This document shows positions 598 through 12,097 of a stretch of 12,588 bases of DNA, piece by piece. Positions within the stretch are counted from its first letter, which is position 1. Every line of letters begins with the position of its first letter. Position numbers and translations under genes: made by a program. The notes below the pieces were generated by a model that was not told where the DNA came from, searched no databases, and saw only the letters and a list, made by a program, of their open reading frames with translations. This DNA is from a virus (taxonomy: Duplodnaviria; Heunggongvirae; Uroviricota; Caudoviricetes): the IMG/VR virus record IMGVR_UViG_2713896773_000018, positions 1-12,588 of that record; one strand, given 5' to 3'.

Positions 598-935
598 GCT
601 CTCACCCCGTATACGCTTAAAATTCTTCTCATCGCCGCGCTGTTGCGGCACTCCTGGCAGATCACGTTTGCCTCTGTACGCTGCACCAGCTTCGAATTTC
701 CCTTCGGCATAGCCGGGATTGTTTCTGGTGCGTATTTCATGCCGTAATCGGTCAGCCGATAAAGCCGCTGGCCGTATTTTCCTTCGCAGCGGATCAGGCC
801 GTCTGCCAGCAGCGTGCTCACCGTTCCGGATATCTTTTTGGTGTCCATGCCGATAAGCCCTGCCAGTTTGGCGTTGTTCAACCCTGGGTTGTTGCGCAGG
901 GCGGCCAGCACCTGCTCACGGATTGTTATGTTCAT
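594..935 (-). CDS. ren: Ren-like protein (113 aa)
   Basis: Start at the internal ATG 933-935, one nucleotide after the P stop; the ORF-track N-terminal extension overlaps P and is rejected. C-terminus ...CQECRNSAAMRRILSVYGVRA resembles the C-terminus of lambda Ren as I recall it (...KECRQSAAMKRVLAVYGVKR). Position immediately downstream of P matches lambda. Confidence 0.65.
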   Translation of the reverse strand: MNITIREQVLAALRNNPGLNNAKLAGLIGMDTKKISGTVSTLLADGLIRCEGKYGQRLYRLTDYGMKYAPETIPAMPKGNSKLVQRTEANVICQECRNSAAMRRILSVYGVRA

Positions 936-936
936 G

Positions 937-1626
937 TCACACCATCCCGTTCGACTTGTTGCGGTTGTACTTGGCCAGCAGCAGCTGGATCGGCGTCGGC
1001 CCTTGCTCGGCAGCTGGTGCGGCAATAGCCCGGCGTACCGGCGGCACTGGCTTACCCTCGGTGACGCGCCTTTCCCACATGTCCAGCAGATCGCCTGCCT
1101 CGCGTGCCAGTTCACCATGCGTTAACTGGCGCTCGGTGCTGCGGTGGCGCAATTCTACGCAAATGTGGTACATGACCGGCTGCGACCATGGAAATTGCTC
1201 GCTGGAGATGAATTCGAACGAACGATTACGCCATTCCCAGTACTCGGCGATCACCTGGTCAACGTTGACGCCCAGCGCGCCGCCGCTCTGCTTGCACCAG
1301 GCGACGAACTGGCCCGGCGACGGCAGGAATGGGCGCTCCTGGCGGCGGGCAATGCGCATGCCGGCATCGACCTGAGCCATGGTGTGGATCCCGTTCTCCT
1401 GAAACGCCAGCAGCCACTGACGGCGGAATTCGTTCAGGTCTTCCTGGGTGCGGAAGTTCGCCATGCTGGCCGGGAACGCGGCGCGCAGCTCGTTGAACAG
1501 CTTGTTGAATACCTGCGCCACCTGCTCGACCGGCGCGCACTCCTGGTACTGCTCTGGCAGGTTATGGGCCATGCGGCTCATCTGCTCGCGGTCGTGGTTA
1601 CGCATCTGCTCTGCAAGAGATTTCAT
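937..1626 (-). CDS. P: replication protein P-like (DnaB helicase loader), 229 aa
   Basis: Collinear similarity to lambda P from memory along the whole length (e.g. MKSLAEQMRNHDREQMSRMAHNLPEQY... and RRQERPFLPSPGQFVAWC). Start ATG 1624-1626 overlaps the O stop (ATGA) and is preceded by GGGGTGA. Confidence 0.9.
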   Translation of the reverse strand: MKSLAEQMRNHDREQMSRMAHNLPEQYQECAPVEQVAQVFNKLFNELRAAFPASMANFRTQEDLNEFRRQWLLAFQENGIHTMAQVDAGMRIARRQERPFLPSPGQFVAWCKQSGGALGVNVDQVIAEYWEWRNRSFEFISSEQFPWSQPVMYHICVELRHRSTERQLTHGELAREAGDLLDMWERRVTEGKPVPPVRRAIAAPAAEQGPTPIQLLLAKYNRNKSNGMV

Positions 1627-2531
1627 CGGATCACCCCATAGGCCCAGTCAGTGTTGTTGAAGTCCAGATCTGGCTTGACAGCGCGCTGCTCACCTCCGGC
1701 GTTACGCTGCATTGTCAGCTTGTCCCACTGCTTACGCAGGCTTTCGGGACTCAGGATGTTGGTCTGCCAGAAGTGGTGTTTGCTAGCCCAGTCATACAGC
1801 GCGCAGATGTCCTGGTGCGACCGGTTGTCTATCTGGCGCATCAGGCGAACAGTGTTAGACCAGGAGGTCATGTCCGGGGCTTTGCAGGTTGGGTTAATCA
1901 GCTTCACCCTGGAGGAAATCCACTTAGCTGTCTCGAGGTCTTCAGCAGAGCCCCACTTCGCACCGGATGGTGTGTAGACCGCAGCTTCAGGATGAGTTGA
2001 TAAAAATTTCTTCAGACGTGCGTCAGAGGATTCGTCAGAATTCTCGGACGAAGATCTTTTAATACTGTTCTTGTTCTTGTATTGGGTGTCTACCGTTTTC
2101 GGGAAGGTTATTCCTGATTTCGGGAAGGATTTTCCCGTTTTCGGGAATTTTCTTCCCGTTTCCGGTTTGTCTAAAATCCATGCTGAAAGGTCAGTGTTTA
2201 CACCGACGATTTTCATCATGCCCTGCTTCTGTGAAAAGATGATTTTGCGTTCTGCGAGAGACTTAAGCGCGTCCGATACATGCGTATCGCTCAGGCCCGT
2301 AAGCTCGGCAATAACCGTATTTGTCACGCGGTCCTGTTTCTTGTTCCAGCCGTAGGTAAGCCAGATCACCGCCTCAAAACATTGCCATTCCCGGCCTGAC
2401 AGTCTCAGGCGAGGCTTAAGCTGTTGGATCTCGTTAGCGACCTTGGTATACCCGTTCGACAGGTCGGCCATACGACCTCCCGGTTGTTCGGTTTTATTTG
2501 GGAAATTGATTATTTCAGCGGTGTTTGACAT
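1623..2531 (-). CDS. O: replication initiator O-like protein, 302 aa
   Basis: N-terminal region (MSNTAEIINFPNK...LTYGWNK...) resembles lambda O. Start ATG 2529-2531 with GGGAGTAAGT RBS; the upstream in-frame extension from the ORF track is rejected. A central repeated peptide FPKTGKSFPKSGITFPKT is encoded by the DNA iterons. Confidence 0.85.
   Translation of the reverse strand: MSNTAEIINFPNKTEQPGGRMADLSNGYTKVANEIQQLKPRLRLSGREWQCFEAVIWLTYGWNKKQDRVTNTVIAELTGLSDTHVSDALKSLAERKIIFSQKQGMMKIVGVNTDLSAWILDKPETGRKFPKTGKSFPKSGITFPKTVDTQYKNKNSIKRSSSENSDESSDARLKKFLSTHPEAAVYTPSGAKWGSAEDLETAKWISSRVKLINPTCKAPDMTSWSNTVRLMRQIDNRSHQDICALYDWASKHHFWQTNILSPESLRKQWDKLTMQRNAGGEQRAVKPDLDFNNTDWAYGVIR
2045..2160. other. 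phage origin of replication (ori-lambda-like): three 21-bp-spaced iterons with internal dyad symmetry plus an adjacent AT-rich stretch, inside the O gene
   Basis: TCGGGAA(GG) recurs at 2099, 2120 and 2141, exactly 21 bp apart, each followed by an inverted TTCC(C/T)G arm (CGGGAAGGATTTTCCCG, CGGGAATTTTCTTCCCG). The flanking 2045-2090 segment is AT-rich (cttttaatactgttcttgttcttgtatt). Lambda ori has the same layout within O. Confidence 0.7.
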
Positions 2532-2616
2532 ACTTACTCCCGTTACTTGCCGTAACACAGTGTGATAAGGGCCTTTGAAGTTACCGCTTCAAGGGCTTTT
2601 TCTTTTCTTGTGCCTC

Positions 2617-3159
2617 TCATATAACCCCCAGCATCGATGTAACCATCGTCATCAGCGGTCCTACCTGCTCCGGCATGAGGCGAAACAATGACGCTATGCC
2701 CTCGCTTACCTCCTTCATTTTCTGGTGCTCAGGCGCGTTCAGGAGAACGGCTTGCTTTGCTTCTGAACATTCCTTCATGGCAGATGCGATCAGCGACATG
2801 GTGTCGTTCTGCGGCGCCAGGCGTGTACGAAACTCAACAGGAAGAACAGCCATGATTGCCGGGGTCAGTTCTCTAACGTTCTCGCGGTACTGATCGGAGT
2901 CGAAGCGGTTATCCAGAAAGCGAAAAAGTTTCTGGCGCGCCCTGCTGATGTCTTCTGGGAAGCTGATGGCGGTACCGCCCTGCTCCCGGTATTCGTTGAT
3001 GATCAGCGCTGACACTACGTCCTGATTGTCCAGGGACGACGACCATGCACGGACCGCATCGCGGATTTTGTCGTGACCTGGCTCCGCCTTAGGTTGAGCG
3101 CGGTTTATCATCGCTCCCGGGTGTATTCCGGTATTGTGTTGATACGCAAGTGAATGCAT
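2617..3159 (-). CDS. CII-position regulatory protein, YdaT / CP76-type (180 aa)
   Basis: ATG at 3157-3159 with AAGGGA RBS. Lies between cro and O where lambda has cII, but is twice the size of CII. Segments IINEYREQGG... and RELTPAIMAVLPVEFRTRL resemble Rac prophage YdaT as I recall it. Family assignment is from memory and unverified. Confidence 0.5.
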   Translation of the reverse strand: MHSLAYQHNTGIHPGAMINRAQPKAEPGHDKIRDAVRAWSSSLDNQDVVSALIINEYREQGGTAISFPEDISRARQKLFRFLDNRFDSDQYRENVRELTPAIMAVLPVEFRTRLAPQNDTMSLIASAMKECSEAKQAVLLNAPEHQKMKEVSEGIASLFRLMPEQVGPLMTMVTSMLGVI

Positions 3160-3189
3160 TGCTTTCCCTTTCGTGGTTAGAGCCGCCGG

Positions 3190-3411
3190 TTAGGCGGCAA
3201 AGATACCTGGATATAGAACTTCGCGAGGAAGTCCGGTTACTTCTTCGTATTTACGCATTTTTGTTACTGGAAGGCTGCCACCTCGCTTTTTAAGCATATT
3301 GATGGCCTGAGGCGTTACGCCGACCTTTTCAGCAAGCACCTTTTGAGAGCCGCCCACTGCATTAATGGCTTTCTCAAGCGGGGTGCTGGCGTTGGATTTT
3401 TTGTTGATCAT
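3190..3411 (-). CDS. cro: Cro-like HTH regulator (73 aa)
   Basis: First gene divergent from the repressor. HTH segment QKVLAEKVGVTPQAINMLKKRGG. ATG at 3409-3411 with a GGAG RBS. Confidence 0.8.
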   Translation of the reverse strand: MINKKSNASTPLEKAINAVGGSQKVLAEKVGVTPQAINMLKKRGGSLPVTKMRKYEEVTGLPREVLYPGIFAA

Positions 3412-3432
3412 GTTTTGCTCCGCTCATGTGTA

Positions 3433-3506
3433 ATCAACACCATGTTAATTCATGGCGTGGATTAAATCAACATTATGGTGATGGAAAAAATCCACATGTT
3501 GTTTAC
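3433..3506. promoter_or_regulatory. OR-like operator cluster: three 17-bp sites of form ATC[AC]ACA-N3-TGnTnAn between cro and cI
   Basis: Site A 3433-3449 ATCAACA CCA TGTTAAT; site B 3466-3482 ATCAACA TTA TGGTGAT; site C 3490-3506 ATCCACA TGT TGTTTAC. The same half-site recurs in the OL region at 5458-5541. Confidence 0.65.
3442..3470 (-). promoter_or_regulatory. candidate PR promoter for cro (minus strand): -35 TTGATT (3465-3470), -10 TAACAT (3442-3447), 17-bp spacer
   Basis: Hexamers read on the minus strand; they overlap operator sites A and B as PR overlaps OR1/OR2 in lambda. The -10 is a weak match, so the exact hexamers are uncertain. Confidence 0.4.
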
Positions 3507-3528
3507 CATGCATGGAGCGGAGGGTTTT

Positions 3529-4248
3529 ATGAGCAGCATTTCTGAAAGAATTAAATTTTTACTGGCAAGGGAAGGCTTGAAGCAGCGGGATTTGGCTGAG
3601 GCTTTGTCGACTAGCCCACAGACCGTTAACAACTGGATAAAAAGAGACGCGTTAAGTCGTGAGGCGGCGCAACAAATATCTGAAAAATTCGGTTATTCTC
3701 TTGACTGGTTATTAAATGGAGAGGGTTCTCCAAAGAAGGATCTGGAGAGCAACATCCCGCCAGAGTCTGAGTGGGGAACTGTCGACGCTTGGGACAAAAA
3801 TACCCCCCTACCTGACGATGAGGTGGAAGTACCGTTTCTGAAGGATATCGAGTTTGCGTGTGGTGATGGACGAGTACACGATGAGGATCACAACGGTTTT
3901 AAATTGCGCTTTTCAAAAGCAACGCTCCGTCGAGTTGGAGCTAACACAGATGGGTCTGGCATCCTGTGTTTCCCTGCTACTGGCGACAGCATGGAACCTG
4001 TGATACCGGATGGTACGACTGTAGCCGTCGATACGAACAACAAACGCATAGTTGATGGGAAACTGTATGCCATTGGTCAGACAGATGGCGGGAATGGTCA
4101 ACTCAAGCGCATTAAACAGCTGTATCGTAAGCCAGGTGGGAAGCTGATCATCCGCAGTTACAACAACGACTCCTACCCAGACGAAGAGGCTGATATTGAT
4201 GATGTCGAGATAATTGGCCGTCTCTTCTGGTACTCGGTATTGCTGTAG
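3529..4248 (+). CDS. cI: CI-like prophage repressor (XRE-type HTH + S24 LexA-like autopeptidase), 239 aa
   Basis: N-terminal HTH (RDLAEALSTSPQTVNNWIKRD). C-terminal S24 signatures GDSMEP (catalytic Ser) and GQLKRIKQL (Lys). The ATG at 3529 has a GGAGCGGAGGG RBS; the upstream ATGs at 3475/3481 lie inside operator site B and lack an RBS. Confidence 0.9.
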   Translation: MSSISERIKFLLAREGLKQRDLAEALSTSPQTVNNWIKRDALSREAAQQISEKFGYSLDWLLNGEGSPKKDLESNIPPESEWGTVDAWDKNTPLPDDEVEVPFLKDIEFACGDGRVHDEDHNGFKLRFSKATLRRVGANTDGSGILCFPATGDSMEPVIPDGTTVAVDTNNKRIVDGKLYAIGQTDGGNGQLKRIKQLYRKPGGKLIIRSYNNDSYPDEEADIDDVEIIGRLFWYSVLL

Positions 4249-4294
4249 CGGTGGCCTGATGAGACGTTTTGGTGAAAGCATATAAGGACTGTTG

Positions 4295-5161
4295 ATGGAA
4301 AACACTGGCTTACACGATGTTAATTTTTCACTTAGATATGACGGTTTGGATGCTGAAAAGCATGAGATTGAACTTTCTTCGCTCGGTGAATCGCTAAAGG
4401 GATTTTCGAAGATATTAGCTACAGCTGGAACCTTCGCATTAACCCAAAAGTACTCGCGAAGCACCTCAACTCAAGAGGTTAAAATTTACGCTACCGAAGC
4501 TAGGGCCAATTGTTTTTCTCTTGATACTATCATGAATTTTATCAGTCAGTCTCAATTGTTCTCAGGGTCTGCGGGGGCTATACTTGGCGCATTAGTGCCT
4601 TATATCTTCGCTAAAAACTCGCAGAAGAAAGAGGAAATGAAATACCTAAAAGAAGCACTTGAGAAGGCAATTGAGGCCCTCGGAAATAAAGATAAAGATA
4701 CCATCTCAGGTCTAATCTCAGTGATTGACAAGATGGCTAGTGAGTTACGCCCATCAGTTAGACAGGCAGTTTCCCCCATCGGTACCACCTGTAATAAGAT
4801 AAGCGTCACACCGGGGAATGGTTTCAAGCCTGCTGTAATTGATGAGCAAGATAAAGCAGTAATAGACCAGTTGGACGACGACGAAGTTCTTGGCTTAAGG
4901 GAGTATCGAATCTTCCTTACTGAATTCGACGCTCACCGAATGACCGCTAAAGTCATTATAGAAGGTGATGATTCAGATAAGCGCATCTCAGCACAAATAA
5001 GCGATCCATCTGCTTCAAAGGCAGACAACCCGTATCTCATTTCACTTAGTCGTTTTCTGTCAACGGGTCTAAGTCATGAGTCAGCGGTAAAAGTAACTGC
5101 CAAAGCAGCAGTTAGAAAAGGGGCTATTAGTAAACTTTTCATAGTTGATATTGAGCTTTAA
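4295..5161 (+). CDS. hypothetical protein (288 aa) in the rex/immunity-moron position; one short hydrophobic stretch, no recognised domain
   Basis: ATG at 4295 with AAGGA RBS (the ORF track starts at a TTG at 4292). Immediately downstream of and co-oriented with cI, followed by a terminator. AT-rich: about 38% GC in a hand-counted 130-nt sample. Hydrophobic stretch [17 protein letters not shown], then a K/E-rich helical segment. Confidence 0.8.
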
Positions 5162-5164
5162 CAA

Positions 5165-5187
5165 CCGGCCACCGCGCCGGGTTTTTT
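5165..5187 (+). terminator. rho-independent terminator ending the cI operon
   Basis: CCGGC-CACCG-GCCGG stem-loop followed by TTTTTT, directly after the stop at 5159-5161. Confidence 0.7.
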
Positions 5188-5191
5188 GTGC

Positions 5192-5401
5192 CTACTTCAC
5201 AGCTTTACTACCCTTCCTGACTATCTCAGCTGCATCCCTGTTCACACCCTTACCTATCACGTTTCCCGTTTCCTTCCGGTACCGTTCCAGCTTGTCGATG
5301 ATGTTTTGCTGGGTCATAGGTAAATCTGCCAGTGACAACTCCATGACCGCCCGCCCCATGGCGTGAACCATCATGTTCACTCTTTCTTCATCCAAGTCCA
5401 T
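5192..5401 (-). CDS. hypothetical small protein (69 aa), convergent with the cI operon
   Basis: Strong RBS AAAGGAGTGGGTA before the ATG at 5399-5401. Its upstream region is the AT-rich operator-bearing segment 5402-5500. No family recognised. Confidence 0.6.
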   Translation of the reverse strand: MDLDEERVNMMVHAMGRAVMELSLADLPMTQQNIIDKLERYRKETGNVIGKGVNRDAAEIVRKGSKAVK

Positions 5402-5457
5402 TACCCACTCCTTTTTGATGTTTTTTTCAGCATATCACTTATGCCACCAAAAAATAA

Positions 5458-5542
5458 ATCAACATAAAAATCAACAGTAAACGATTAAATCAACAAAATA
5501 AATCCACAAGGTGTTGACCTACAAATCCACATGATGTTTAAT
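5458..5542 (+). promoter_or_regulatory. OL/PL-like region: operator half-site array plus candidate PL (-35 TTGACC 5514-5519, -10 TTTAAT 5537-5542, 17-bp spacer)
   Basis: ATCAACA at 5458, 5470 and 5489; full sites ATCCACA AGG TGTTGAC (5502-5518) and ATCCACA TGA TGTTTAA (5525-5541). The promoter hexamers sit inside these two sites, as in lambda OL1/OL2. Confidence 0.6.
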
Positions 5543-5588
5543 TACTCCATCGAAACGAAACATCGACAGCTGAGCGAAGTTAGCCAGC

Positions 5589-5619
5589 GGCGGACAGCAA
5601 GTCGCCTGCTTTTTAACAA
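5589..5619 (+). promoter_or_regulatory. candidate nutL-like antitermination site: hairpin (5589-5606) followed by boxA-like TGCTTTTTAACAA (5607-5619)
   Basis: TGCTTTTTAACAA differs at one position from the E. coli rrn boxA core TGCTCTTTAACAA as I recall it. It lies about 40-70 nt downstream of the predicted PL start, preceded by a GGCGG/UCGCC stem. Confidence 0.4.
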
Positions 5620-5843
5620 CATGCAAAGTCGGAACAGCACTCAGTAATCCTGTTTAGACCCCAACGTACAAATTCGGCGCAGCACCGGGCGCGATCCGGT
5701 CGGTGTGAGGCTACCCCCTCGCGAGAGCGATAAAGGCGTGGGAACGGGCAACACTGGCTGGATGAGAGGTGCGAAGCGCAAACAGATTTATTCCAGTCCA
5801 TTCGAAGTTGAGTGGGCTGGGCTGAATCACAAGAGGATTTTTT

Positions 5844-6056
5844 ATGACTCAGACATACATTCCGGCGTGTTTAAGAGACCTTCCTAAGAAGCGTCAGAAG
5901 CCACGCAAACAGGCGATTAAAGAAGCGCAAGTGGAAGTTCTGAATAAGGCAATCGCATCGATAAAAGACGATATGCGTGCGTTCAAAACAGAAGAGCAGC
6001 GTCGCGGTCATTACCAGGCGATCAGCACACTCTCACAGATTCGTGATGAGTTGTAG
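5844..6056 (+). CDS. small basic protein (70 aa), first gene of the PL operon (N position); function unassigned
   Basis: Strong RBS AAGAGGA with a 6-nt spacer. Basic N-terminal segment LPKKRQKPRKQAIK. No clear arginine-rich motif of the lambda N type, so an antiterminator role is positional inference only. Confidence 0.6.
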   Translation: MTQTYIPACLRDLPKKRQKPRKQAIKEAQVEVLNKAIASIKDDMRAFKTEEQRRGHYQAISTLSQIRDEL

Positions 6057-6079
6057 AAGCTGATAGATAAAGCATTTCT

Positions 6080-6097
6080 CCCGCATCAGCGGGTAAC
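6080..6097 (+). repeat. copy 1 of a 17-bp direct repeat CCGCATCAGCGGGTAAC (hairpin CCCGC-ATCA-GCGGG)
   Basis: Identical 17-mer at 6081-6097 and 6303-6319, each just upstream of a gene's RBS. Confidence 0.8.
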
Positions 6098-6113
6098 TAA
6101 GTGGAGAGTACGT

Positions 6114-6302
6114 ATGCACAAGTGTCAATTCTGTGGGTACTTTCTGGCATCTGAAGAGATGCAGAGAATATCTGTAAACATGGTTGGCAGGCCTTACAAC
6201 ATCTGCATTCCATGCTCAGAAAAGTACAAAAAGAAAGGCCTGTGGGATTCGGCAAAAAACGATATCGACTGGAAATCACTTCCATGCGTCGATGAGACAT
6301 AA
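6114..6302 (+). CDS. small zinc-ribbon-like protein (62 aa; CxxC...CxxC)
   Basis: RBS GGAGAG with a 5-nt spacer. Cys pairs CQFC and CIPC about 24 residues apart. AT-rich. Flanked by the 17-bp direct repeats. Confidence 0.6.
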   Translation: MHKCQFCGYFLASEEMQRISVNMVGRPYNICIPCSEKYKKKGLWDSAKNDIDWKSLPCVDET

Positions 6303-6319
6303 CCGCATCAGCGGGTAAC
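6303..6319 (+). repeat. copy 2 of the 17-bp direct repeat CCGCATCAGCGGGTAAC
   Basis: Exact match to 6081-6097; begins one nucleotide after the stop of the 6114-6302 gene. Confidence 0.8.
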
Positions 6320-6335
6320 GACAGAGGGTAAGTCA

Positions 6336-7004
6336 ATGATTCGTCTTAACAACGAAATTAAAAATCAGCTATGCCATAACCTGCTTCTCGCATCCCCATT
6401 GTTTGAGAAAGCGAAAGCTGCGGTTAATGAGAGGGCGAAAATTGTTGAAGAAATTCGACAGGCATTGCTCAAGCAGGAAAACACTAGCGATGAGCAAATA
6501 ACTAAGGCTCGGGAAGATTTCAAAGATAACTCCTTCATCAAGATGCAGGTCGGCGCTAAAACTGCAACTTTAAAGGTCATTATTAATGGTGAGTATCACG
6601 AATTAGCCAGGAACGGTTTGGATCATCGCTATCGCCACCGTGGAAAACATATTGGTAAGCACGATCTTGAAAGCGACCTGTTCTTCGGAGCTTCCTTCGC
6701 GCCTGTAATTGATTCGGGTTTCGTTCCTGAAAGTTACAGCACGCTGAAGAAAGTTGGAAAATTACACGACCGACTCACTGAATCGACGGTAACCATCAAC
6801 GTTCTTTACGATGAAGTTGATGCCTTCCAATTGCAGGTTAAAGGTGCTCTAACCAAAGTCTCAACTGTTAAAAAACTGGCTGAGATGTGGCCTGAGGCAG
6901 TGCCATATTTGCCTGAGGTGGAACGCCGTGAAGCGACCAGCACCGCACTTGCCATTCCCGTTGAAACGCTAAACGCCCTTTGCGGCATACCAAAGAATGA
7001 ATGA
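6336..7004 (+). CDS. hypothetical protein (222 aa), AT-rich accessory gene in the ral/sieB-equivalent position
   Basis: RBS GAGGG. A long ORF with no internal stops in AT-rich DNA, followed by a strong terminator. No family recognised. Confidence 0.8.
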   Translation: MIRLNNEIKNQLCHNLLLASPLFEKAKAAVNERAKIVEEIRQALLKQENTSDEQITKAREDFKDNSFIKMQVGAKTATLKVIINGEYHELARNGLDHRYRHRGKHIGKHDLESDLFFGASFAPVIDSGFVPESYSTLKKVGKLHDRLTESTVTINVLYDEVDAFQLQVKGALTKVSTVKKLAEMWPEAVPYLPEVERREATSTALAIPVETLNALCGIPKNE

Positions 7005-7026
7005 CCCGCTCCGGCGGGTTTTTTAT
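7005..7026 (+). terminator. rho-independent terminator
   Basis: CCCGC-TCCG-GCGGG stem-loop followed by TTTTTTAT, immediately after the TGA at 7002-7004. Confidence 0.8.
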
Positions 7027-7165
7027 CGGCCATACATAGGCAGATTTTCGAGTCTGCCCATTTATGACAACCGGCGGCCATCCACCGCCCATTGAAACAC
7101 TGAATAAATGCGTTGAAGTCTTGTATTAACCGTTCGGCGGCGCGGCCTTAAGCGCGGAGATGATT

Positions 7166-7675: not shown

Positions 7676-7830
7676 CAGTCACCCATAACGGAAAGAAGTA
7701 CACCGCCAAAAAGCTCAACGATAACGAGTGGCAGCTGACGTCCGTATCGGCACCGCGTGAAAAGCTGACGCTTAACCGCTGGCATATGAAGCTGGCTGGC
7801 CTCCTGGAACAGGTTGAGGTGAAGGTATGA
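7672..7830 (+). CDS. small hypothetical protein (52 aa; MTVTHNGKKYTAKKLNDNEWQLTSVSAPREKLTLNRWHMKLAGLLEQVEVKV), not in the supplied ORF track
   Basis: Strong RBS GGGAGG 5 nt upstream of the ATG at 7672. ATGA overlaps with both the upstream and downstream genes suggest translational coupling. Confidence 0.55.
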   Translation: MTVTHNGKKYTAKKLNDNEWQLTSVSAPREKLTLNRWHMKLAGLLEQVEVKV

Positions 7831-8333
7831 TGCGAAAGCACAAGTTGCCAAGTGCTGAGGAGATAGATTCCTTGCTGGATTACAACCCTGAAACCGGAGT
7901 ATTTACGTGGAAAGTGACGAAATCAGGATGGGTTGTAAAGGGGCGGCCTGCTGGTTCAAAAAACAATAATGGCTATCTCCGAGTTGGTATTGGAAGAAGG
8001 CACTACTTCCTTTCTCGAATCGCATTTTTCTTATGCACCGGGGAATCACCTGAAGAAGTAGACCATATCAATGGTGACAGAACAGATAACAGGGCGTGCA
8101 ACTTAAGAGCCGCAAGCCGTCATGAAAACTGCCTCAATAAGTCGGTAAGAAGCGACAGCAGGACTGGTGTAAAGGGCGTCTCATGGCGACCGGATGTTAA
8201 AAAATGGTCTGCACGATCAACTGATTCATCGGGGAAGAGAGTGTTTTTAGGTTACTACCGCACCATCAGAGATGCGGTGGCTGTCCTTAATGATTTTCGG
8301 AGAGAACAGCATGGTGAGTTTGCAAAAAATTAG
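7827..8333 (+). CDS. HNH homing endonuclease with C-terminal AP2-type DNA-binding domain (168 aa)
   Basis: HNH motif EEVDHINGDRTDNRACNLRAASRHENCLN. AP2-like segment GVKGVSWRPDVKKWSARST...KRVFLGYY. RBS GAGGTGAAGG. Confidence 0.85.
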   Translation: MMRKHKLPSAEEIDSLLDYNPETGVFTWKVTKSGWVVKGRPAGSKNNNGYLRVGIGRRHYFLSRIAFFLCTGESPEEVDHINGDRTDNRACNLRAASRHENCLNKSVRSDSRTGVKGVSWRPDVKKWSARSTDSSGKRVFLGYYRTIRDAVAVLNDFRREQHGEFAKN

Positions 8334-9880: not shown

Positions 9881-10798
9881 ATGAGCTTAACCCTTGTTGA
9901 TTTCGTCAAACAACAGGAGCCGCTTTTCATTAAGGCGGCCACAGACGAGCGGATGGTGTGGGCGAAGGAAAGCCAGTTCGCCATCCAGCTATTTCAGAAC
10001 AATGACTACCTCGCGAAAGTCGCATTCCAGAACCAGACCAGCACGCAGAACGCAATAATCAACGTTGCGGCTATCGGTATTTCGCTAAACCCAGCTCAGA
10101 AGCTGGCTTACCTGGTTCCGCGTAAAGGGGCAGTTTGCCTCGACATCAGTTACATGGGCCTGATGCACATTGCGCAGCAGTCTGGCGCCATTAAATGGTG
10201 TCAGTCGGCAATTGTTCGCAGAAACGACCAGTTCCGCCGCGAAGGGCTCGATAAGCCGCCGGTCCATATCTACAACGACTTCGATACCGAAGAGCAGCGC
10301 GGGGACATCGTAGGGGCATATGTAACGGTAAAAACTGACGATGGTGATTACCTCACCCATACGATGCGCATCGATGCCATTTACTCCATCCGTGACCGGT
10401 CTGAAGCATGGAAGAAGTACAAATCTGACAACAGTAAAAAGTGTCCATGGGTCACTGACGAAGAACAGATGATCCTCAAAACAGTCGTGAAGCAGGCAGC
10501 AAAATACTGGCCTCGCCGTGAGCGCCTGGACGCCGCCATAGACCACGTTAACACCGAGGGCGAAGAAGGTATCAACTTTACAGCAGAGCGTCAGCCTGAG
10601 CGCGATATAACGCCGCTTAGCGAAACCACGCAGAAAGAGATAAACGACCTGCTTGTCTCTTTGGATAAGACATGGGATGACGATCTTCTCCCTCTCTGCT
10701 CACGCATTTTCAAACGCCCTATCACGCAGCCAGCAGACCTGACAGAGCTTGAAGGTGTTAAAGCTCTCGGGTTCCTCAGACAAAAGGCGGCAGCATGA
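9881..10798 (+). CDS. single-strand annealing protein: RecT-like core with a Red-beta (Bet)-like C-terminal tail, 305 aa
   Basis: Perfect RBS AGGAGG. The C-terminal ~70 aa ([13 protein letters not shown]...[16 protein letters not shown]...[12 protein letters not shown]) closely match the lambda Bet C-terminus as I recall it. The N-terminal ~230 aa look RecT-like rather than Bet-like. Stop overlaps the exo start (ATGA). Confidence 0.8.
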
Positions 10799-11475
10799 CA
10801 CCAGAAATTATCCTGGCCCGGACCGGCATTGACGTAACCACTATCCAGCAGGGCGACGAGGCGTGGCACCGGCTGCGCCTCGGCGTTATCACCGCATCTG
10901 AAGTTCACAACGTCATTTCCAAGCCCAGATCTGGGAAGAAGTGGACAGACATGAAAATTTCCTACTTCCACACCCTACTCGCCGAGGTATGCACCGGCGT
11001 AGCGCCAGAGGTTAACGCCAAGGCGCTGGCCTGGGGGAAGCAGTATGAAGAAGACGCCCGCACCCTCTTCGAGTTCACCACCGACGTGAAAGTCACGGAG
11101 TCTCCGATCTTGTTCCGTGACGAGAGCATGCGCACCGCGTGCTCACCTGACGGCCTTTGCAGTAACGGATTCGGCCTCGAATTGAAATGCCCGTTCACCT
11201 CCCGCGACTTCATGAAATTCCGCCTTGGCGGTTTCGAAGCCATCAAGTCTGCCTACATGGCCCAGGTGCAGTTCAGCATGTGGGTGACCGGGAAAGACGC
11301 CTGGTTCTTTGCCAACTACGACCCGCGCATGAAGCGCGAAGGTATTCACCACGTCGTCGTTGAGCGGGATCCACAGTACATGACCAATTTCAACGAAATG
11401 GTGCCGGAGTTCATCGAGAAGATGGACGAGGCGCTGGCGGAGATCGGCTTCAGGTTCGGGGAGCAGTGGAAATGA
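10795..11475 (+). CDS. exo: lambda-type 5'-3' exonuclease (Red-alpha / YqaJ family), 226 aa
   Basis: Near-collinear, high-identity match to lambda Exo from memory ([14 protein letters not shown]...[24 protein letters not shown]...[31 protein letters not shown]...[10 protein letters not shown]). Confidence 0.93.
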
Positions 11476-11518: not shown

Positions 11519-12097
11519 ATGAAACGCCTGGACGATGTTTGCGGCAAAGCAGGATGGCGCAATGAATACCGCGATATTCCCAACAACGGCGGAGTTGAAT
11601 GCGGCATATCAATCAAGATTGATTCCGAATGGGTAACCAAATGGGATGCTGCTGAAAACACGCAGGTAGAAGCCGTCAAAGGTGGTCGTTCAGGTGCAAT
11701 GAAGCGTGCTGCCGTTCAGTGGGGAATAGGTCGGTATCTGTATAACCTTGAGGAAGGTTTCGCACAAACATCTCTCGATAAAAAGCAGGGATGGCACAGG
11801 GCAAAACTCAAGGGTGGAACAGGATTTTACTGGCTCCCTCCATCGCTGCCGGGATGGGCAATCCCAGCATCAGATAACAAACCATCACCAGAAAATACCA
11901 ACCATAAATCTCCATCGGTTGACTGCGAGCAAATCCTGAAAGACTTCAGCGATTATGCGTCAACAGAAACTGATAAGAAAAAACTCATCGAGCGTTATCA
12001 GCGTGACTGGCAATTAATGGCTGGCAACGAGGAGGCGCAGGCTAAATGCGTTCAGGTAATGAACATCAGAGTTAACGAACTAAAACAGGCGGCATAA
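11519..12097 (+). CDS. Erf/Rad52-superfamily-like protein, apparently N-terminally shortened (192 aa)
   Basis: C-terminal ~55 aa (EQILKDFSDYASTETDKKKLIERYQRDWQLMAGNEEAQAKCVQVMNIRVNELKQAA) closely match the P22 Erf C-terminus as I recall it. Rad52-like motif AMKRAAVQWGIGRYLY at residues ~60-75 leaves too little upstream sequence for a complete annealing domain. Weak RBS. Confidence 0.55.
   Translation: MKRLDDVCGKAGWRNEYRDIPNNGGVECGISIKIDSEWVTKWDAAENTQVEAVKGGRSGAMKRAAVQWGIGRYLYNLEEGFAQTSLDKKQGWHRAKLKGGTGFYWLPPSLPGWAIPASDNKPSPENTNHKSPSVDCEQILKDFSDYASTETDKKKLIERYQRDWQLMAGNEEAQAKCVQVMNIRVNELKQAA

Follow-up and report, generated by a model that had tools for sequence, protein, structure and literature searches.

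That YdaT proteins can stand in functionally for CII has been established in papers from 2018 to 2025 (PMC5917428, PMC8630535, PMC9986795, PMC11879457). Jurenas et al. reported that YdaT of CP-933P activates the promoter PRE933P, located between ydaS and ydaT, and stated that the protein "is homologous to CII from Phi80" (PMC8630535). Prolic-Kalinsek et al. determined the crystal structure of YdaT and found that it is composed of an N-terminal POU-like helix-turn-helix (HTH) domain of five helices and a long C-terminal helix alpha6, and that it forms a four-helix-bundle tetramer whose operator is TTGATT-N6-AATCAA (PMC9986795). Wons et al. located the Rac box, ATGATT-N6-AATCAA, over the start codon of ydaT. 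They showed that leftward transcription toward racR is activated up to 29-fold and that this requires the box (PMC11879457).

The window considered here, that is, the whole stretch of 12,588 nucleotides that was analysed, carries a gene of this kind where lambda has cII. Taken as a whole, the data are very probably best explained by a phi80-type cII, the product of which is a YdaT-family regulator that does the job of lambda CII via a leftward promoter.

The cII gene and its identity with that of phi80

The gene and its translation signal are as follows.

2617-3159, minus strand: cII coding sequence, 180 aa, YdaT-family CII analogue (ATG start, ORF call, phi80 identity)
3162-3171, minus strand: cII Shine-Dalgarno region AAAGGGAAAG, 5 nt before the ATG at 3159

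The DNA at 2560-3470 is 99.9% identical over 911 bp to positions 35360-36270 of the phi80 record JX871397, in which the same 543-bp ORF (PHI80_49) is annotated as "cII: CII decision making protein". The product agrees with phi80 CII (AFV29185.1) at 180 of 180 residues. The identical protein is present on at least 1000 public contigs and bears the NCBI label "toxin YdaT domain-containing protein". By this identity, the phage has phi80 immunity and the ORF is its cII gene, which has already been named, sequenced and annotated in phi80. Since both the protein and its neighbours are identical to those of phi80, and the CII role of YdaT is in print, the finding is already known and amounts to a rediscovery. 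We take phi80 cII to be a genetically defined gene, relying on the GenBank annotations.

The sole base that differs from JX871397 in 2560-3470 is position 3168, inside the cII Shine-Dalgarno sequence. It is G in the window and T in both phi80 records (X13065 and JX871397), so that the window and nearly all related phages read AAAGGGAAAG and the two records read AAATGGAAAG. The Shine-Dalgarno region is 97-100% conserved among 126 unique junctions. Laboratory phi80 may have a weakened cII ribosome-binding site. The record X13065, which dates from 1988, lists cII as 132 aa. Compared with the window and JX871397, it has a 1-nt gap and one substitution at about 3063-3065 of the window; the shorter cII is due to the gap at about 3065, which shifts the frame.

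A start at M17, encoded by ATG, GTG or TTG depending on the class of CII, was considered and rejected: two classes are missing a usable Shine-Dalgarno sequence there, whereas that of M1 is conserved. M1 is preferred as the probable start of cII.

The immunity region and the mosaic structure of the window

The gene is part of a lambda-type immunity region, mostly on the minus strand, with the order cI, oR-pR-pRM, cro, cII, oop-like M3 RNA, O and P. It follows a Cro-like HTH gene, precedes a replication gene and is divergent from the repressor gene. The other elements of the region are listed below.

3190-3411, minus strand: gene 30 (cro analogue), HTH protein of 73 aa, 73/73 residues identical to phi80
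1623-2531 (ORF to 2558 by one bound), minus strand: gene 15 (lambda O analogue), 302/302 residues identical to phi80
937-1626, minus strand: gene 14 (lambda P analogue), 229/229 residues identical to phi80
3432-3450, 3465-3483 and 3489-3507, no strand assigned: oR, three 19-bp CI operators, exact match to JX871397 features
3442-3447 (-10) and 3465-3470 (-35), minus strand: pR, exact match to a JX871397 feature
3504-3509 (-10), plus strand: pRM, exact match to a JX871397 feature
2542-2601, plus strand: M3 RNA, antisense, phi80 analogue of lambda oop RNA, exact match to a JX871397 ncRNA
3529-4248, plus strand: cI, S24 repressor of 239 aa, chimeric, with a phi80 N-terminal part and an HK225-like C-terminal part

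The M3 RNA has a terminator hairpin (2567-2600), a terminator-like site with a T-run. No Rfam family reached the gathering threshold in the window, and the matches around cII and M3 were at chance level only. Residues 1 to about 155 of CI are identical to phi80 CI, and the CI operators are identical too; the C-terminal part resembles that of HK225, carries an insertion of 5 residues and ends differently. The window is a mosaic. It is phi80-like at 895-5761 but departs from phi80 at its left end, in the C-terminal third of CI and around the N gene (about 5762-7040).

Several other features of the window were recorded. The phi80 N gene is replaced at 5762-7040. A 70-aa ORF at 5844-6056 (PHROG_5305), with the basic stretch KKRQKPRKQ, occupies the N position; the nutL boxA is kept at 5607-5615, and the phi80 nutL core CACGTAAACGTG is absent. 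The N/nut specificity of the window may be different from that of phi80. Between cI and oL, in the position of phi80 "40A" and lambda rexAB, the gene at 4295-5161 matches DUF7946 (E=4e-62) and DUF7947 (E=1e-20); it may be an accessory or defence gene expressed by the prophage. An HNH endonuclease gene (7827-8333; PHROG_99, E=3e-64) is situated in the pL operon between phi80-like segments and is absent there in phi80. An ORF for an Erf-like single-strand annealing protein (11519-12097), which matches its profile at positions 45-251 only, immediately follows the genes for a RecT-like protein (9881-10798) and an exonuclease (10795-11475). From this place and the partial match, it is taken to encode a second, possibly truncated recombinase.

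Assignment of the product to the YdaT family

The protein matches PF06254 (YdaT_toxin) over residues 68-155 with E=2.7e-28 and a score of 98.7 bits, the cut-off being 21. PHROG_163, "CII-like transcriptional activator", is matched over residues 17-179 with E=1e-59. It can be aligned with the PDB entries 8bt1 (E=2e-4 as a single sequence, 5e-8 with a profile) and 3c4r (1.5e-3 and 1e-7, respectively), the profile having been built from five sequences. Both alignments span residues 24-114 and include the QK-FR motif of the recognition helix alpha3, where QKLFRF is matched with QKIFRW. Phi80 CII shares 33% identity over 73 aa with Rac YdaT (b1358; E=2e-9). A single-sequence AlphaFold2 model had a pLDDT of 36.6 and was unusable for judging the POU-like fold and the alpha6 tetramer; the coverage of residues 68-155 by PF06254 should include alpha6.

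In contrast, the comparison with lambda CII gave nothing. Phage_CII (PF05269) had no match at E<=0.1, and BLASTP against lambda CII returned no alignment at E<=100; the lambda query was confirmed by PF05269 at E=1e-48. Direct repeats of the lambda type, TTGC-N6-TTGC, occur near cII as 1-mismatch matches only, and the total for the window is 10 as compared to 18.6 expected. By these matches, the product of the cII slot is a member of the YdaT family, not of the lambda-CII family.

The first-pass annotation had described a 180-aa "YdaT/CP76-like" protein, twice the size of lambda CII, in the cII slot between cro and O. The position and the YdaT character are confirmed (ORF 2617-3159, PF06254 at the E value above), and so is the size, 180 vs. 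97 aa, or 1.9 times. The YdaT part of the label is backed by the Pfam, PHROG and PDB matches; the CP76 part could not be traced, and no relevant literature on it was found. The comparison with the YdaT and CII families pointed to YdaT, not to lambda CII.

The names in use, YdaT_toxin in Pfam and the toxin label at NCBI, would fit another role, in which a YdaS/YdaT toxin-antitoxin pair has this protein as its toxin, which poisons the host instead of regulating. The Cro-like neighbour does have a weak match to YdaS_toxin, and Rac YdaT is toxic on over-expression (PMC11879457). However, over-production of lambda CII is toxic as well (cited in PMC5917428), and three papers argue against a toxin-antitoxin function and show transcription-factor activity (PMC5917428, PMC8630535, PMC9986795). 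Furthermore, the immunity region is a complete one of the lambda type, the gene occupies its cII slot, and the phi80 annotation names it cII. A toxin role is therefore exceedingly improbable, and database names such as "toxin YdaT" mislead.

The hairpin at the cro stop codon

At the end of cro, the rightward transcript can form a stable hairpin.

3182-3198, minus strand: GC hairpin, RNA GCCGCC-UAACC-GGCGGC, with the cro stop codon in the loop (sequence and fold)

It consists of GCCGCC (3182-3187), GGTTA (3188-3192) and GGCGGC (3193-3198), and its loop, read on the sense (minus) strand, includes the cro stop TAA (3190-3192). The RNA has a folding energy of -12.7 kcal/mol (z=-3.9), and none of 200 shuffled sequences folds as well. 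The sequence after the hairpin is UCUAACCAC; there is no U-tract, and the terminator scan omits the hairpin. In its sequence, its position, the missing U-tract and its overlap with the cro stop codon, the hairpin is exactly as the earlier annotation had it.

The set of relatives comprised 187 loci with a common 25-nt core at the cII start. Of 105 unique contexts, 103 contain the hairpin; the Cro-slot proteins that it follows are of 39 distinct kinds, only 3 of which resemble the Cro of the window. Stem pairs 1-5 are invariant and pair 6 is C-G, U-G or G-U, while the loops drift (TAACC, TTAAC, TGATT, TAATT and GTGATACT). The Cro proteins end in Ala-Ala in all five annotated phages that were aligned and are otherwise unrelated; the codons of this ending are the 5' arm of the hairpin. 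In the wider set, the conserved 5' arm of the stem implies the same predicted Ala-Ala-stop ending. A C-terminal Ala-Ala resembles known protease recognition tags, and for this reason the ending may matter at the protein level besides the RNA level.

The same annotation had suggested that the hairpin stands in the place of nutR/tR1 of lambda. The idea that it is the boxB of the phage's nutR, or its tR1 terminator, has in its favour the position between cro and cII, the stability and conservation of the structure, and the fact that no other candidate for nutR was found on the rightward transcript of phi80. Nevertheless, the pR transcript from 3430 to 2500 contains no boxA at up to 2 mismatches and no sequence similar to the annotated nutL core at up to 3, and the rightward transcript of phi80 has neither. 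The variable loops are unsuited to a boxB that is read by one N protein, and the hairpin of the window is identical to that of phi80 in spite of the replacement of the phi80 N gene and nutL core. HK639 also keeps the hairpin, even though its antitermination is RNA-based and proceeds without N. Because the U-tract and boxA are missing and the structure persists where the N gene differs, the hairpin appears to be neither nutR nor an intrinsic terminator. We see only a slight chance that it is either of them, and this part of the earlier suggestion did not hold.

A near-invariant island at the cII start

The hairpin belongs to a longer conserved segment.

3136-3198, minus strand: near-invariant island of about 60 nt with the hairpin, the Shine-Dalgarno sequence, the cII ATG and the first 8 or so codons (alignment of related junctions)

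Its flanks diverge, with Cro proteins at 20-37% amino acid identity and CII proteins down to 31%. Island positions -3 to +21 served as the search pattern and are necessarily invariant in this set; the stem and positions -25 to -4 were outside the pattern and were not selected for. The island overlaps both the predicted start region of pRE and the ribosome-binding site of cII.

One may ask whether the hairpin and the island are a "linker" at a module boundary that has no regulatory role of its own and is kept uniform by recombination among lambdoid phages. The abrupt end of conservation at the cro stop codon points in this direction, as does the joining of 39 unrelated Cro modules to three or four N-terminal classes of CII via the same island. 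Recombination alone, however, does not account for a stem whose pairing is kept (C-G, U-G, G-U) while the loop drifts, nor for the Ala-Ala codons at every Cro end that form the 5' arm. Moreover, two functional elements fall within the island, the ribosome-binding site of cII and the region where pRE is predicted to start. We regard the linker explanation as rather unlikely.

Candidate operator and leftward promoter of CII

The best match to a YdaT box in the cro-cII region lies inside the 5' end of cII.

3094-3111, plus strand: candidate CII operator TTGAGC-GCGGTT-TATCAT, cII codons 17-22
3132-3137, plus strand: candidate -10 hexamer of pRE, TATTGT, directed toward cro and cI, 20 nt from the box, with a predicted start near 3144

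On its own, the box is weak: it differs from the Rac or CP-933P box at 3 positions, its dyad symmetry is only TGA-N10-TCA, and it is not above chance, with 5 matches at up to 3 mismatches as compared to 6.8 expected. A search for the CP-933P-type box TTGATT-N6-AATCAA, again at up to 3 mismatches, found none near the cII start, and the total for the window was below chance. Neither the annotated phi80 pI nor the Q-like gene 17 contains a YdaT box. A motif apparently common to the island and phi80 pI, spotted by eye, was discarded, having a local alignment score of 14 against a null mean of 14.4.

The case for the box comes from the relatives. Phages bearing the island fall into three N-terminal classes of CII, and in each of them, on the strand directed toward cI, a dyad is found at one register (codons 17-22), separated by exactly 20 nt from a hexamer TAnnnT that follows it.

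phi80 class: dyad TTGAGC-GCGGTT-TATCAT, hexamer TATTGT
HK639/HK225 class: dyad GCGATT-CTGGTA-AATCAT, hexamer TACCTT
ENT1 class: dyad TTGATA-AATCGA-AATCAA, hexamer TACTCT

The box of the ENT1 class is perfect or near-perfect (one mismatch to the experimentally defined box), and that of the HK639 class has 2-3 mismatches. TAnnnT has a background of 0.0074 per position (0.74%) in the DNA examined. The conserved bases (TGAT and TC of the dyad; T1, A2 and T6 of the hexamer) fall in codons whose amino acids differ, which points to a constraint on the DNA, not on the protein. The shared register is not fully independent evidence, because the three phi80-family classes are homologous.

A similar geometry was seen in more distant systems. 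On the antisense strand, the mapped Rac box reads TTGATT-TTCATG-AATCAT and is followed after exactly 20 nt by TATGAT (E. coli K-12 Rac L208, 1118-1195). In the CP-933P-type phage vB_EcoS-813R8, a box is likewise followed after 20 nt by TATGAT, and in a Klebsiella phage the distance is 21 nt and the hexamer TATCAT. The spacers in these three are unrelated sequences. Two published placements count against a 20-nt layout: the CP-933P box was put downstream of PRE933P (PMC9986795), and the activated Rac promoter about 190 bp from its box (PMC11879457). The conserved operator-promoter spacing across distant YdaT systems disagrees with the latter position. The mapped Rac box with TATGAT, a good -10 hexamer, 20 nt away suggests a proximal YdaT-dependent promoter, instead of or besides the published one.

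The -35 position of the candidate pRE, CATCGC, matches TTGACA at 0 of 6 bases, and a scan with the sigma-70 consensus detected no promoter in 2400-3600. Both are expected of an activator-dependent promoter. A start about 7 nt past the hexamer, near 3144, places the centre of the dyad at about -41.5. From the dyads at the same register and the Rac-like geometry, we infer that CII binds 3094-3111 and activates pRE at 3132-3137; as the exact targets of CII, both sites are predicted from sequence comparison.

In the mechanism that we propose, CII would be made from the pR transcript just after Cro. Its tetramer would bind the inverted repeat at 3094-3111, within the first part of cII. The centre of this operator would lie about 41.5 bp upstream of a weak leftward promoter (-10 TATTGT, 3132-3137) that lacks a usable -35 element. 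Binding would switch this promoter on, and the transcript, running antisense through cro into cI, would establish repression. In this scheme, the identity of the gene, the family and the lambda-like layout come from the present analysis, while DNA binding, tetramer formation and leftward activation are taken from the literature on homologues.

The first-pass annotation had also proposed that the lysis-lysogeny circuitry may differ from that of lambda, which fits these data weakly. The protein fold, the inverted-repeat operator and the 30-nt spacer between cro and cII speak for a difference; on the other hand, the gene layout is that of lambda, and homologues activate a leftward promoter of the pRE type. 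The logic of the circuit would be that of lambda, with only the protein being different.

A second dyad upstream of the nin and Q genes

Beyond the window, phi80 contains exactly one perfect TTGATA-N6-TATCAA, at 38718-38735 of JX871397, as compared to 0.008 expected. It is intergenic and lies about 3 kb downstream of cII; across related loci, the distance is 1.9-6.9 kb. In 37 related loci, a dyad TTGAT(T/A)-N6-(A/T)ATCAA precedes CATAAT by 5 nt, and its distal half, 17 nt upstream of that hexamer, is in the position of a -35 element. The 6-nt spacers of the dyad differ among these loci, while the half-sites are constant. The dyad promoter is followed by a conserved hairpin with the loop CCUGAACAAC, the element as a whole covering 38718-38810 in phi80. 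No Rfam match beyond chance level was obtained for this nin-region element. No covariation was seen between the distant dyad sequence and the class of CII; TTGATT/AATCAA is found with every class. The element at 38718-38810 may be a CII-repressed promoter ahead of the nin and Q genes, which we offer as a lead, not as a result.

Such an element raises the question of whether CII is mainly a repressor, acting at the perfect dyad over the -35 region and spacer of a strong rightward promoter upstream of nin/Q. Shut-off of that promoter would favour lysogeny, and activation of pRE would be minor or absent. The uniqueness of the perfect dyad in phi80, its fixed distance from CATAAT in the 37 loci with variable spacers and unchanging half-sites, and the much weaker box inside phi80 cII all agree with this possibility. 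Yet the distant element, which is beyond the window, is a putative CII site, and the conservation of its distal half-site may merely reflect its role as a -35 element. In addition, the homologues have been shown to activate leftward transcription, and the roles of repressor and activator are compatible, not exclusive. That CII works mainly by repression is thus improbable, and activation of a leftward promoter remains the preferred reading. If repression at the nin/Q promoter is true, it would be a route to late-gene delay unlike the paQ antisense RNA of lambda.

Comparison with known systems

Put together, these observations lead to a tentative and, in our estimate, rather doubtful proposal. 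YdaT-type CII proteins would share a fixed promoter layout that has not been described (operator, 20-21 nt, TAnnnT; centre at -41.5), those of phi80-like phages would also repress the rightward promoter upstream of nin/Q, and the island would be a control element shared by cro and cII. The spacing, the island and the second, perfect operator, as inferences from sequence, would refine the view of how a non-lambda CII takes part in the lysis-lysogeny decision.

The closest system is phi80 itself, with the same protein, the same neighbours and the same regulatory sites; one base of the Shine-Dalgarno sequence (3168) differs, and the window departs from phi80 in its N region, at its left end and in the C-terminal part of CI.

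YdaT of CP-933P (8bt1) is of the same Pfam family and occupies the same slot between a Cro-like gene and O, and the recognition-helix motif R-x-x-QK-x-FR is common to both proteins. However, identity is only about 25-30% over residues 24-114, and phi80 CII has about 20 extra N-terminal residues. The CP-933P repressor is PaaR2, with an adjoining toxin-antitoxin pair.

In Rac, and by prediction in the phi80-type locus, the operator is at the 5' end of the regulator's own gene, followed by 20 nt and TAnnnT in the antisense direction. Rac YdaT activates transcription of the repressor gene (PMC11879457), and the phi80 counterpart would do so by analogy. In Rac the box lies over the start codon, in phi80 its candidate counterpart is at codons 17-22. 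Rac has no GC hairpin and no invariant island, and its YdaT also regulates the host gene rcsA.

With lambda CII, the protein has in common the position of the gene, a tetrameric HTH architecture, presumed from its homologues, and an oop-type antisense RNA downstream. The presumed task is the same too: a leftward establishment promoter is activated from a site within the first part of cII. There is, however, no detectable sequence similarity between the two proteins, of 97 and 180 aa, respectively. Lambda CII reads the direct repeat TTGC-N6-TTGC, while YdaT proteins read an inverted repeat, and the gap between cro and cII, which in lambda is about 200 bp with nutR and tR1, is 30 bp here.
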